Source of the DNA: a virus
Taxonomy: Duplodnaviria; Caudoviricetes
Length of the DNA stretch: 64,000 nt
IMG/VR virus record: IMGVR_UViG_2786546905_000002
Span: 1-64,000 of that record
Reading direction: 5' to 3' (one strand)
Positions 11,907 to 54,590 of this stretch are shown piece after piece. The notes beneath the pieces are model-generated. The model did no database searches and had not been told where the DNA came from. It worked only from the letters and a program-made list of their open reading frames with translations. The translations under genes and the position numbers were made by a program. Each line of letters begins with the position of its first letter. The stretch's first letter is position 1.

Positions 11907-12261
11907 TTTAAACCTCTATAGGTTAGAGGCTGTTTTCTTAGTTTTGCGGGGTTTATTGATAATAACTCATTGAGCATTAAGCCACCAATAGGGATGTTAA
12001 GGCCTTTTGTAATAAGGGCTTAAAGAACTAACTAAACAAATCAACACTCAAGCCACCCTTTCAAGTTACCCATGAAAATGGTTAATTTTTGTTGTTGTTT
12101 TGGCTGTTCTTATTCGGAATAATCAACCCGTTCAAAAAACAGTGTTATGAAAGGAGCAATCCTCAAATAACATATCATTTCATTAATTTAAGTGGCGTTT
12201 TTTTGGGCGGGGAACTTGAGAGGCCAAGCTATTTATTTAGCTTGGCCTTTCTGCTTTCTGG

Positions 12262-12284
12262 CTTAAAATTTCGCATGCGAAAAT
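12262..12284. repeat. Dar-associated palindrome copy 1 (CTTAAAA-TTTCGCATGCGAAA-AT)
   Basis: 14-bp perfect palindrome 12269-12282; the 23-mer is identical to 19094-19116. Confidence 0.95.
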
Positions 12285-12349
12285 CTCCCTTTCCTTTATC
12301 ATATCGTTAGCTTCCCTGCTGAAAAATGCCCTCCTACGTGGAGGCAACG

Positions 12350-15300
12350 ATGGATAAAGCCATTATCCAAGCGATTGATAGCACCCGTAACATTGATGAG
12401 CTGGTCGCCCAGTTCGAAACGTTACTTAAGGTGGATCTCAGTAATACCCCTACCGGCAAGAAACGGATTGCCGCAAACCAAAAAGCGAAAGACATTCTCG
12501 CCAAATACAATGGCGACTACTCCAATGTTTCACCGGAAGACAAAGCCGCATTGCGCGATTACACCGGCTTTGGCGGCATTGGTGGTTCAACCAACGAATA
12601 CTACACACCAAAATGGGTAGCCGAGGCGGTCTGGGAATCGTTGCGCTCCTATGGCTTTGATGGTGGTTCAGTTCTAGAGCCTAGTGCCGGTGTTGGCGTG
12701 TTCAGTGAAACCAAACCCGCGAACGCGCTTAATACGTCTGTAGAAATGGATCCGACTTCTGCAGCGATTAACCAAATCCTCCACCAAGATGACCACGTTA
12801 TTAACTCTGGCTTTGAGGCTGTGGCCAACGATCCAAGTGTTGGTAACTTTGACGCCGTAATTGGCAACCCACCTTATGGTGTCCGAGACGCCAGTGCGAA
12901 CGATGACCGTGAGTACAAAAACATTAAGTACGCAGATCAGTACTTCGTGACACGTTCAATTGATAAGGCCCGTGCTGGTGGTTTGATCGCTTTAGTTCTG
13001 CCTACGCGTATTGTGGAATCTGGCAACCTGAAAAAATGGCGTACCAGCATTGCATTAAAAGCCGAGTTCTTAGGCGCTCACCGATTACCAACAGGCACGT
13101 TTGCCGATACTGGTGTTGTGACTGATTTAGTGATCTGGCGTAAACATAGTGAAGCTGGCCAAGAGCTAATTGATAACGCCAGCAAAGAAGCGCTCGAGCA
13201 GAGCGGTGTACTTTGGGATACATGGCTAACCGGCAAATGGTTTAAGCGTGAGGGTAAGAAGTTCATCAACGGTGAAGAGTCGACACAAGGTGCGGGTAAG
13301 TTTGCTCGTAAAGTCGTGGACCGTGGGAACCGCTCTAACATGGATATCAAAGAAGCCCTAACCCGCCGCTTTGATAGCCATATTGACTGGGACTCACTTG
13401 ATAGCAACGTTGAGCCACCAGCAAGCACCAAGTATGACGACGGCGATACCATTTTCAGAAATGGCCTCCAGTTCGAAATGCAAGATGGTGAGTGGATTGA
13501 ATCCGAAAACAACGCCAAGCGCGGGAACGTCGACAAATCGACATATGGCGTGACGCATTCTGACGATCTGCAAGCAGCGACCTACTCGATTGATTCCATG
13601 ATGAACCTGACGGCCAGCCAAGCGCTTAAGGCCTATGAAGATTTCCCATACCTTTGTCATGATGATTTTAAAGCCGTTGTACGTTCTATTGCCAAGCTGC
13701 CACAAGGCCAGCAAGAACTCGCATACAAGGGGGTGTTATTAGGGCGCAAAGTCAAAACCTTATCGACCATGGTAGCCGGTGGCCGTAGCCGCTCTAAAAC
13801 GGAATTACTTCACGCTGCAGTGAATAGCGAAGAGCAAAGTATTGCTGATTATCGCACCCGTCTTGGTGGCCAGATAACAGAGCTTAATGCTCTTATGGGA
13901 AACAGCCATATTTCGCAGAAAGAGCTAGCCAAGCTTGATGAGTCGTTTATCTCTGACTGGCATAGCTATAAATCGTCTATCGATAACTCTGGCAAACTGT
14001 CGGACCTGTTAACCGGTGATCTACGAGTTGAGCACACAAACCAATATAACAGCTCGAGAATGGCTGACGTTCTTCACTTCTGTGAGCGTGAGCTTGGCCA
14101 TACTTCACTCACCCTTGATGAAATCCGTGTTTACTACACGGCCCCAGACATTGCCAACCTAAGCGATGATCAGTTGCTCGAGAAGCTTGCGCTTATGGAT
14201 GAGGTAGCCATCAATAACGATGGTTCTATTCAGGCCATGCACCGTGCTTGCTCTGGCCATGTTGGACGTCGCATCGAAGCCCTGCAGAATCAACTATCTG
14301 TGGCCACCAGCGACAATGTAAAAGCCAACTACATGCGTCAGCTCGAAACCATTGAAGCTAAGCGAAACAAGATCTCACTCGATGAGGTGAAAGTTAAACT
14401 CACAGACAACTGGATCCCGCGTCATATCATGCTGGAGTTCCTGCAGGATTCTGGCTACGTCGATTTTGAGCTAGGTGAATGGGAAGAGAACGAATTTACT
14501 TACATTGATGATGATGGCGAAGAGAAGACCAGTGTTGAGCGTGAATTTGTTCAGAGCGAAACCGGCACCCAGTTTAGTGGGTACCGTTGGCGTGATGGCA
14601 AGAAGCGTAATGCTGGTGATGAAGCTTTTGAGCGTCAAATCGAATCCTACATCAATGAGGGTAAAGTGCGTGGTGGTGGCGATAACGCTGAAAAGTCACT
14701 GGTCCGTTCTAAGATTCGCTCTCTCGATGATGAGTTCACCAACTGGCTCGCAGCCAGCGATCACTCTGACGAACTGGAAGAGCAGTATAACAACACGTTC
14801 AACAACTGGATTAAACCAGAGTTCGATGGTAGTGACTTAGGCCTAGAGGGTGTTTCTGGTGCCATTGAGTTCATGCCTTACCAAAATTCGACCATTCGAC
14901 GCCATAGCGCAGACGGCAACGGGATCCTTGCTTTGGGTACCGGCTTAGGTAAGACCCTCACGGGCTTAGGTCTGATTCAGCACAACCTATCAACCAAGCG
15001 TGCAAGCCGTGTTGGTGTCGTGGTCCCTAAATCAACGCTAGAAAACTGGTTCTATGAATCGGATCTGTTCTTTGGTGAAGAGAATCTAAGTGACAAAATT
15101 TTTGTTGGTTTAGACGTGGCCAAAGACAAGAACGGCACTATTGAGCGTGAGACGGTTCTCGATGAGAACGGGGATCCTCGCCTTGATAAGAAAGGCGAAC
15201 CAATTAAGCGTGCCAAGCTAAAAGTTGTCACCAACGGTAAGAAGATAGCCGAGCAGCTTCACGCGGTAACACAATCTACCGCTCGCATTGTGGTGATGAC

Positions 15301-53442: not shown

Positions 53443-53961
53443 TTAAAGTACCTTATTGCCTACACTCATGAATTTTTGGAAGATCAGCGGGAACGAGCGA
53501 ATGCTGTTTGCTGTATCACGCGAATTGTTGATGTTGCCTTTCTTGGTTGGGAATACCTGATAGGCCTTTCTAAACGTCTTGTTCCCGTCGTCATCGAGAT
53601 CGAAGATTTTGATTTTGAAAATGTAATCAATTGGGATATTGAGCGTGCCGTCTTGGTTCTTCACCTTGGCCAAGCGACCATCGAACCAATTACTGATCGT
53701 TTTCTTTTGGTCATCACGCACGGTCATAGTGATCTCACTAGCGCCAGCTGCCGTCGGCAATGCGATATGGCCAGAGCCCACTTGAAAGGTGTCGGCGTCA
53801 ATTGAGCCCTCACCATAATCAATGTCTTTCACGTAAATATCGAAGTCTGCCGGTGCGTCTGGTGCGTCAATTTCGATGGCCCACTGCCAGCCTTGCTGCC
53901 ATGGCTTTTCCATGAAGTTTTTGACTGAGCGTTTAGCGAGTTTCATGTATGGGTTTGACAC
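53443..53961 (-). CDS. tub: Tail tube initiator-type protein, P1 Tub-like
   Basis: QGWQW.IEID...KDI.Y...I......G......P......ITMTVRD...WF...V.N.DGT.NIP. Confidence 0.8.
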   Translation of the reverse strand: MSNPYMKLAKRSVKNFMEKPWQQGWQWAIEIDAPDAPADFDIYVKDIDYGEGSIDADTFQVGSGHIALPTAAGASEITMTVRDDQKKTISNWFDGRLAKVKNQDGTLNIPIDYIFKIKIFDLDDDGNKTFRKAYQVFPTKKGNINNSRDTANSIRSFPLIFQKFMSVGNKVL

Positions 53962-53963
53962 AG

Positions 53964-54524
53964 TTAGCCCCCCAGCAAGCTGATAGGCGGGATCATTGCT
54001 CGGTTGCTGCGCATCTGTGCTTCAAGGGCATCACGGCGCGTGGCCAAGTCGGTTTCTGCAGGTAGCCCAGAGGTGTCCATCTTGCCTGCAGTGGAAACTT
54101 GTCGGATGCGCTCTGAATTGGGAATAGTGATCAGGAGCTCAAGGTAATCCCCCAGCAAGCTAATGCTGGTGCTGGGTAGCTGGAACGTATCAAAATCGCT
54201 CTCAAGGACGTTTTTCAGATAAGAAAGCGTTAGAGGAAAGACTTCATCACCATCGAGCTCTAATTCAAGGTTTCCATCCCATACGGTTGAATTGATAAAG
54301 CGGTGCTCTTTATCTTTGAGAGACAGCTTGGATAAGAATAACGGTGGTAACTCGCACGAATCTGAGGCGTCTACAGCGCGGATACGGTGGCGATCGGAAA
54401 AACCAGCCAATTCTTGGTACTTGGCCAGCGCTTTTTTTAAGAGGCTAAGTAACGCTTTTTCATCCTCATGCAGTAGCACAGGGAAACGCGCTTTAACGTC
54501 CTCTAAAAGTTGTTTCGGGGTCAT
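53964..54524 (-). CDS. pmgC: Head-tail adaptor, PmgC-like
   Basis: MTPKQLLEDVK.RF..L...LL.DYLE.LI.IPN..R.R.....GK.D.S.L matches recalled P1 PmgC. Confidence 0.8.
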   Translation of the reverse strand: MTPKQLLEDVKARFPVLLHEDEKALLSLLKKALAKYQELAGFSDRHRIRAVDASDSCELPPLFLSKLSLKDKEHRFINSTVWDGNLELELDGDEVFPLTLSYLKNVLESDFDTFQLPSTSISLLGDYLELLITIPNSERIRQVSTAGKMDTSGLPAETDLATRRDALEAQMRSNRAMIPPISLLGG

Positions 54525-54590
54525 AGCTGCTCCAATGGAGGCAGCATTTTTATAGCGGGGGAGCCCCTATGCTATATCACTCTTGCTCAT

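Follow-up and report, generated by a model that had tools for sequence, protein, structure and literature searches.

A C-rich box set against Shine-Dalgarno-sequestering hairpins as a candidate late promoter of P1-like phage-plasmids without Lpa

In a 64,000-nucleotide stretch of viral DNA (Duplodnaviria, Caudoviricetes; IMG/VR record IMGVR_UViG_2786546905_000002, positions 1 to 64,000; here, the window), a short C-rich motif, the C-box, recurs upstream of late genes, in most cases together with a hairpin that pairs the Shine-Dalgarno (SD) sequence of the following gene. Our analysis shows that the SD hairpin is under selection and that its two arms co-vary. We assign a probability of about 0.5 to the reading in which the C-box and an adjoining A-run form the late promoter of a P1-like lineage without the activator gene lpa, the 5' arm of the hairpin overlaps the transcription start, and only read-through RNA hides the SD sequence. 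We infer the promoter identity of the box and the position of the start, and hence the purpose of the hairpin, which probably keeps late proteins from being made off stray upstream transcripts.

The window takes up the first 64 kb of a contig of 79,454 bp and covers most of a 79-kb element. Judged from its sequence, this element is a phage-plasmid and a distant relative of P1, with 42% identity between its portal protein and P1 Prt. Matches in PHROGs identify Hdf-like, PmgC-like, R-like (tail fiber assembly), DdrB-like, and RCC1-repeat proteins at the places where the first-pass annotation, made from the letters of the window without database searches, had put the corresponding genes. Closer relatives, with portal proteins 68 to 73% identical, are phage-plasmid-sized records, one of them a Vibrio diabolicus contig. 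For comparison we used four whole relatives (G002 to G005), whose orthologous proteins are 60 to 80% identical to those of the window element, together with G006, an element more distantly related. For P1, promoter coordinates follow the GenBank annotation of AF234172, and 48.6 kb of P1 was scanned for boxes. Near-identical DNA was not found among GenBank phages, no Rfam family was matched in a scan of the window, and no paper on the late promoters of these phage-plasmids was found in the literature.

All seven SD hairpins named in the first-pass annotation (before portal, darB, ddrB, hdf, the RCC1-repeat fiber gene, R, and pmgC) are real and lie where it had placed them, with refined boundaries for portal and R; an eighth lies beyond the window (Table 1). 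In the shuffled-leader control that it had proposed, the eight 40-nt leaders fold more stably than their dinucleotide shuffles (z = -1.8 to -4.3; 0 to 9 of 200 shuffles as good). The mean probability of SD pairing is 0.88 for the hairpin genes versus 0.46 for the other genes of the contig (Mann-Whitney P = 2.5e-5). SD-pairing hairpins are also present in the orthologous leaders of G002 to G005, where the portal hairpin is kept with a change from CCTCA/TGAGG to CCTCG/CGAGG. Co-variation of the arms was assessed by cutting 24 nonidentical leaders at the loop and recombining the arms. Cognate arms fold with a mean of -11.7 kcal/mol, same-gene arms from orthologues with -10.1 kcal/mol, and arms from other families with -7.8 kcal/mol. 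None of 5,000 random reassignments reached the cognate mean, nor, in this genome alone, did any of the 14,833 derangements of the eight leaders. The outer stem pairs thus vary between sites yet match within each site, as GUCA/UGAC, GCCA/UGGC, GCUG/CAGC, and GCCG/CGGC. A covariance model search returned no additional convincing copies of the hairpin.

The C-rich motif was found at every place named for it, including 5047-5056, 12205, and 60401; the "G-rich" copies at the latter two are boxes as well, seen from the opposite strand. The motif is linear and reads (T)TCCCC(G/A)(T/C)C(C); the A-run comes after it at a constant spacing. When 28 sites from three genomes were aligned and registered on CCCC, the information was limited to positions -2 to +13, including the A-run at +8 to +13 from the first C (A in 16 to 20 of the 28 sites), while from -45 to -3 it was close to zero (at most 0.4 bit per position), with no -35 element. 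The bare word TYCCCCR is not overrepresented in the window (13 found versus 18 expected); what is nonrandom is its placement. Six of the 14 copies of TCCCCG[CT] on the contig are intergenic, in sense, and no more than 80 nt upstream of a gene (P = 1e-7), a class that makes up 1.9% of the contig strand-positions, and in G002, an independent genome, 7 of 17 copies fall in the sense upstream class (P = 1.6e-8). Where a gene follows closely, the box is always in sense and 27 to 58 nt before the start codon. In the hairpin modules, the first C lies 36 to 45 nt before the start codon except at ddrB, which has an extra hairpin inserted between the C-box and the SD hairpin.

The box is conserved in G002 to G005 before the orthologues of portal, darB, hdf, R, pmgC, g65405, and g68619. 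The order of elements in these relatives is box (ATTCCCCGTC or ATCCCCATCC), A-run (TAAA, TAAAAA, or GAAAAT), G+C-rich 5' arm (GCGCC..CTCC), loop, SD arm (GGAG..GGC), 0 to 9 nt, and start codon. On the contig, an SD hairpin accompanies 8 of the 12 boxes, and the A-run is present also at hairpin-less boxes (sites 5053, 12212, and 69314).

In P1, the late switch consists of Lpa and the host protein SspA acting on a 9-bp box. As annotated in AF234172, a P1 late promoter is made up of this box, 4 nt, and then TAnnnT. The modules described here resemble it in having no -35 element, in placing a short box immediately before an A/T-rich, -10-like element, in numbering about a dozen in a genome, and in occupying the same intergenic positions: boxes sit at the sites of LPpro (before prt), LPs (gene 16/R), LPsit (before pmgC), and LP23. 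They differ in that the P1 box, AAGTGACTT, is unrelated to the box found here, TTCCCCGTCC, which is not palindromic; in that the A-run usually departs from the TAnnnT pattern, by lacking its terminal T, and is more tightly spaced from the box; in that SD hairpins occur at 8 of 12 candidate promoters versus 2 of the 7 P1 promoters examined; and in that P1 carries Lpa. Lpa was not found in this genome or in G002 to G006 by tblastn, Pfam PF25716, or PHROG 1704, whereas a Buttiauxella P1-like element, searched as a control, scores 56.9 bits. Likewise, P1-type boxes (regular expression for AAGTGACTT) number 0 on the contig and 0 or 1 in G002 to G006, versus 6 in the 48.6 kb of P1, while the C-box with A-run is found 5 to 9 times in this genome (C7) and in each of G002 to G005, with two copies in G006 and a single one in the P1 sample.

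On the promoter reading, the module would consist of two parts. The first is a DNA element, the C-box abutting the A-run, as the counterpart of the P1 "-22 box plus -10"; because Lpa is absent, it would be served by a different activator. The second begins 0 to 2 nt after the A-run with the 5' arm of the hairpin (GCC..CTCC); the 3' arm, the SD sequence itself (GGAG..GGC), ends 0 to 9 nt ahead of the start codon. If the geometry is as in P1, the transcript would start within the 5' arm or at its end, and the late mRNA would offer a free ribosome binding site; RNA that reads through from upstream, be it early, constitutive, or leaky, would include both arms and not be translated. If the A-run is the -10 equivalent and the start lies 7 to 8 nt later, as in P1, transcription would begin near +21, and the 5' arm spans about +15 to +23. 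For 16 modules, a set without ddrB, the mean leader energy is -14.5 kcal/mol in read-through RNA versus -2.7 kcal/mol in RNA from +21, and a start at +21 removes the hairpin (-3.0 kcal/mol or weaker) in 11 of them; the R leader of G003 and two further portal leaders are borderline. Most modules lie 40 to 130 nt behind a co-directional gene, so read-through is expected from the gene order; hdf, for example, follows lydA-lydB, whose promoter carries the motif ATTCCGAAC (see below).

The same nesting is found at two P1 late promoters, LPsit and LPdar (AF234172, L042:25077-25127 and 9684-9731). At LPsit, before pmgC, the -10 TAGAAT lies inside the 5' arm, and the leader folds with -21.2 kcal/mol in read-through RNA versus -0.9 kcal/mol in RNA from the predicted late start; at LPdar, before lydA, CCTCCT directly follows the -10, and the values are -13.6 and -1.7 kcal/mol. 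The other five P1 late promoters examined have no such SD hairpin. The first-pass annotation had offered, as one of two explanations, an activator-dependent promoter that starts in the left arm. This is the explanation that the P1-like layout and positions, the absence of Lpa, and the nesting in P1 favor.

The principle is established for phage T4. Early read-through RNA of T4 gene e or I-TevI folds and is not translated, and late-promoter RNA lacks the 5' strand (PMC3014915). Common to T4 e, soc, 49, and I-TevI and to the modules described here are an SD sequence paired with an upstream anti-SD, a late-promoter-like element that overlaps or abuts the 5' arm, and the predicted outcome, silencing of upstream-initiated RNA only. 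The two systems differ in that T4 uses the gp55 promoter TATAAATA, in that the T4 starts were mapped and the effect was measured, both being deduced here, and in that the device is found here on most late operons of a temperate phage-plasmid.

Several observations weigh against the nested promoter. (i) The start site is a prediction from geometry, and the 5' arm begins anywhere from +15 to +24, so that the box-to-hairpin distance varies. (ii) The fit is poor for three of the eight hairpin modules. With a start at +21, the portal and RCC1 leaders of this genome retain -7.9 and -8.4 kcal/mol of hairpin, and at ddrB box and hairpin are separated by the palindrome TTTTCGCATGCGAAAA, such that box-driven RNA would keep the SD sequence paired. 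(iii) The A-run usually lacks the final T of a canonical -10. The earlier statement that no consistent -10 follows the motif is nevertheless incorrect as worded: the A-run does stand at fixed positions. (iv) The covariation across relatives that had been proposed as a check is clear in the arm swaps and modest column by column: with MAFFT and Infernal alignments, 14 to 33 of 500 shuffles reach the observed values. Paired cells make up 71 to 74% versus 37 to 65% with the partner slid, and one Infernal column alternates between A-U and G-C, six of each; the signal is modest because registers and bulges differ between paralogues. (v) Sense and antisense strands fold about equally well (G-U asymmetry, P = 0.13), and the structure-forming strand is therefore argued from SD content and position. 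(vi) The hunt for the activator, by PHROG and Pfam searches of 29 contig proteins, Atlas look-ups, and tblastn against phages, gave leads only.

If the box is a promoter, it may also start transcription ahead of the hairpin, with the conserved Y|GCC junction as one possible site. All late mRNAs would in that case begin with an SD-hiding hairpin that tunes translation down, stabilizes the mRNA, or is opened by a phage late factor such as a Com-like protein, a helicase, or an RNA. The distance from the A-run to the GCC junction is the most constant spacing of the module, a pyrimidine followed by G suits a start site, and wherever a box-driven transcript starts, the portal, RCC1, and ddrB hairpins would persist; moreover, the early region encodes a conserved, lineage-specific zinc-ribbon protein, P0002 (CxxCxGxG...CxxC), although its link to the hairpins is a guess. 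However, hairpins of -9 to -17 kcal/mol would throttle portal, fiber, and tail proteins that are needed in quantity, the annotated -10 at P1 LPsit and LPdar puts the start past the 5' arm, and we know of no global late translational activator in P1-like phages. Such a start is unlikely on balance, yet it is the strongest competitor of the nested promoter. Less likely again is that all late mRNAs are born translationally closed and that a dozen SD hairpins are opened at once by a dedicated phage factor, either P0002 or some other early protein; if true, this would amount to a genome-wide, Com-like late translational switch on top of a new, Lpa-independent late-promoter system.

The other explanation offered in the first-pass annotation was that the C motif acts in RNA as the loop of a short hairpin and that binding of a Com-like protein or a G-rich RNA opens the SD hairpin. 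The box is indeed always in sense at a short distance before a nearby start codon. In this genome, stems of at least 3 bp flank 9 of the 12 boxes, and their summed length exceeds that obtained with shuffled left flanks (41 versus 31.9 +/- 3.4; P about 0.011), an excess that comes from two long stems of 6 to 7 bp. In G002 (P = 0.62) and G003 (P = 0.45), by contrast, the stems are at chance level despite the conserved box, and the C-loop hairpin is for the most part not a real feature. Boxes also occur without a hairpin or a nearby gene (12212, 60408, and 5053), and some stand directly after terminators: before pmgC, a terminator with an 11-bp stem and a T-run ends 31 nt before the box, and in the G002 copy of the 12212 site (L021:4565-4604), a strong-scoring terminator-like site ends 10 nt before it. 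An element that needs upstream transcription would make little sense there. Phage Mu com/mom shares with the modules a hairpin that hides the translation start region of a late gene, and its protein binding to a neighboring hairpin is a likeness only under the explanation just described; it differs in having one target instead of a dozen, and the "C-loop" hairpin is not conserved here. Neither a G-rich partner nor an Rfam family match was seen, and no homologue of Com was identified. With unconserved stems and boxes behind terminators, we consider recognition of a C-loop improbable.

It is slightly more improbable still that hairpin and A-run together form an intrinsic terminator on the antisense strand, which would stop antisense transcription from passing into or out of late operons. 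A simple scan does call the antisense strands of the pmgC, darB, and portal modules and of the G003 portal module terminator-like, and the antisense folds are as stable as the sense folds. This would leave unexplained why the two arms are always an SD and an anti-SD sequence, 0 to 9 nt from a start codon, why the A-run keeps its distance from the C-box, and why it is present at hairpin-less boxes; half of the antisense "U-tracts" are poor (hdf, R, and g65405).

Promoters for sigma-32 consist of the -35 element TTGAAA and the -10 element CCCCATNT, and those of the extracytoplasmic function (ECF) type have CGTC at -10. Although CCCCAT(C) in sites of G003 to G005 and CCCCGTC here and in G002 resemble these -10 motifs, the box as the -10 of an alternative sigma factor of host or phage is the least probable reading and was rejected, as no -35 element of any kind exists from -45 to -3, the essential A of CCCCAT is replaced by G in 21 of 28 sites, and no sigma factor was recognized among the 29 scanned contig proteins beyond a weak region-4-like helix-turn-helix (HTH) in a poorly conserved 120-amino-acid open reading frame (ORF). 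A boxA/nut-like function was also rejected: a few sites, such as CGCTCATTTAAC, are boxA-like, but the invariant CCCC is foreign to boxA and boxes follow terminators.

Neither the nesting principle, familiar from T4, nor the class of promoter, familiar from P1, is new. New are the box itself, the loss of Lpa from the lineage, and a hairpin deployed near-systematically, at 8 of the contig's 12 boxes. The description of the switch as undescribed is thus apt for the motif and its activator and not for the principle. Among phage-plasmids, P1 serves as the model, and its late switch is commonly regarded as typical of them. A branch with Vibrio relatives appears, from the comparisons above, to have swapped promoter box and activator together while keeping the positions of the late promoters, and the device of setting a promoter against an SD hairpin, found at a minority of the P1 late promoters examined, is near-systematic there. 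If the nested promoter is real, it provides a promoter motif for annotating the late operons of marine phage-plasmids and a defined bait for finding the activator of the lineage. It would also suggest that shielding late, potentially lethal genes translationally against read-through is a general rule in the design of plasmid-prophages, which have to stay silent for generations.

Table 1. C-boxes, SD hairpins, and an associated terminator in the window, with one hairpin beyond it
Feature	Coordinates	Strand	Remarks
C-box and A-run, GTTCCCCGTCCCGATAAA	5039..5056	-	27 nt before ATG of 566-aa ORF (3326-5026); no SD, no hairpin
Portal SD hairpin, arms GCCTCTAA/TAGAGGTT	11911..11931	-	-9.0 kcal/mol; start codon at 11906
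Degenerate C-box and A-run, AAACCCCGCAAAACTAAG	11937..11954	-	Before portal gene; position of P1 LPpro
Orphan C-box and A-run (A7), GTTCCCCGCCCAAAAAAA	12198..12215	-	About 290 nt upstream of portal; neither gene nor hairpin nearby
Variant box and A-run, CTTCCCTGCTGAAAAATG	12311..12328	+	Before darB; G002 has the canonical TTTCCCCGTG box there
darB SD hairpin, TGCC-CTCC/GGAGGCA	12327..12346	+	True start of darB probably ATG at 12350
ddrB SD hairpin, GCTTCC/GGAGGC	25586..25604	-	
C-box and A-run, ACTCCCCGCTCAAAAGTT	25625..25642	-	Before ddrB; palindrome TTTTCGCATGCGAAAA between box and SD hairpin
hdf SD hairpin, GCCACTCT/AGAG-GTGGC	31010..31031	-	
C-box and A/T box, GATCCCCGTCCTCTTAAC	31032..31049	-	Before hdf
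RCC1 fiber SD hairpin	33763..33788	-	
C-box, GTTCCCCGTTCTTAACCA	33793..33810	-	Before RCC1-repeat fiber gene; flanked by 7-bp stem TAAGAAC/GTTCTTA
R leader hairpin	45248..45277	-	Covers weak SD (AGG) and GTG start
C-box variant, GCTCCCCAGCTCAAGACG	45276..45293	-	Between gene-16 homologue and R; position of P1 LPs
pmgC SD hairpin, GCTGC-CTCC/GGAGCAGC	54526..54545	-	
C-box and TATAAA(AAT)	54546..54563	-	Before pmgC; position of P1 LPsit
Intrinsic terminator, 11-bp stem and T7	54595..54620	-	31 nt upstream of pmgC box
Orphan C-box, GTTCCCCGCCCACATCTA	60394..60411	-	About 250 nt upstream of 555-aa gene (58491-60158); position comparable to P1 LP23
Eighth SD hairpin			Beyond window, before gene at contig 65405-66034 (g65405)

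The orphan box upstream of portal is conserved in G002, G003, and G004 and may drive a small RNA or a small ORF. The 555-amino-acid gene downstream of the other orphan box we take, from its position alone, to be the counterpart of P1 gene 23 (major capsid). G006 appears to represent a second P1-like lineage without Lpa (L045 to L049; 18524, 58251, and 44408, all on the minus strand). It has a GCCTCA/TGAGGC SD hairpin before R and, as anecdotal support for the promoter reading, a related TCCC(A/G)TCC box followed by a canonical TAGCAAT before portal and by a canonical TACAAT before the capsid gene.

Two small proteins are, from sequence comparison, candidate regulators and are offered as leads only; neither has a homologue in GenBank phages by tblastn. 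The conserved orf97 (P0001; 97 amino acids, 5064-5357, minus strand) lies directly upstream of the box at 5053, much as lpa lies upstream of LPpac in P1, and its Atlas neighbors are small HTH_17/MerR-type DNA-binding proteins (scores of about 0.9, TM of about 0.5). P0002 (145 amino acids, 6144-6581, minus strand), with the zinc ribbon CPTCGGKG...CSAC, is conserved as well, also in G006. The 120-amino-acid ORF mentioned above (2961-3323, minus strand) contains two HTH motifs, the first of which matches Sigma70_r4_2 at 27.6 bits, just above the Pfam cutoff; it has a 49% identical counterpart over 73 amino acids in G002 and is absent in G003 to G005.

Two further motifs were considered as late promoters and rejected. 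The asymmetric ATTCCGAAC(A) occurs 15 times on the contig and about 30 times in G002 (contig copies, e.g., 822, 6584, 8779, and 8826 and, on the minus strand, 12119, 31850, 60198, and 61368). It precedes early genes as well as the holin, amidase, and gene-23-position (capsid) genes, usually lying 2 to 5 nt downstream of a good TATAAT-like hexamer, an operator-like placement; it resembles an operator for the immunity repressor (the C1 analogue) more than it does a late promoter. For the perfect palindrome (T)TTCGCATGCGAA(A), the geometry relative to a -10 is inconsistent, and it occurs only between 12.2 and 25.8 kb, where five exact copies and one with a single mismatch (12270, 19102, 19137, 19587, 25613, and 25800) are all intergenic in the Dar/replicon region. 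Candidate functions are an operator bound by a dimeric regulator and an RNA hairpin. Before darB, G002 has a co-varying version, TTAGCATGCTA. At ddrB, the palindrome lies between the C-box and the SD hairpin, and the ddrB leader of G002 (L021:18659-18741, minus strand) has a different, 39-nt perfect hairpin in place of the 16-nt palindrome, the whole leader folding with -31.6 kcal/mol; it seems that regulatory hairpins can be inserted at this point, between the promoter and the SD hairpin.

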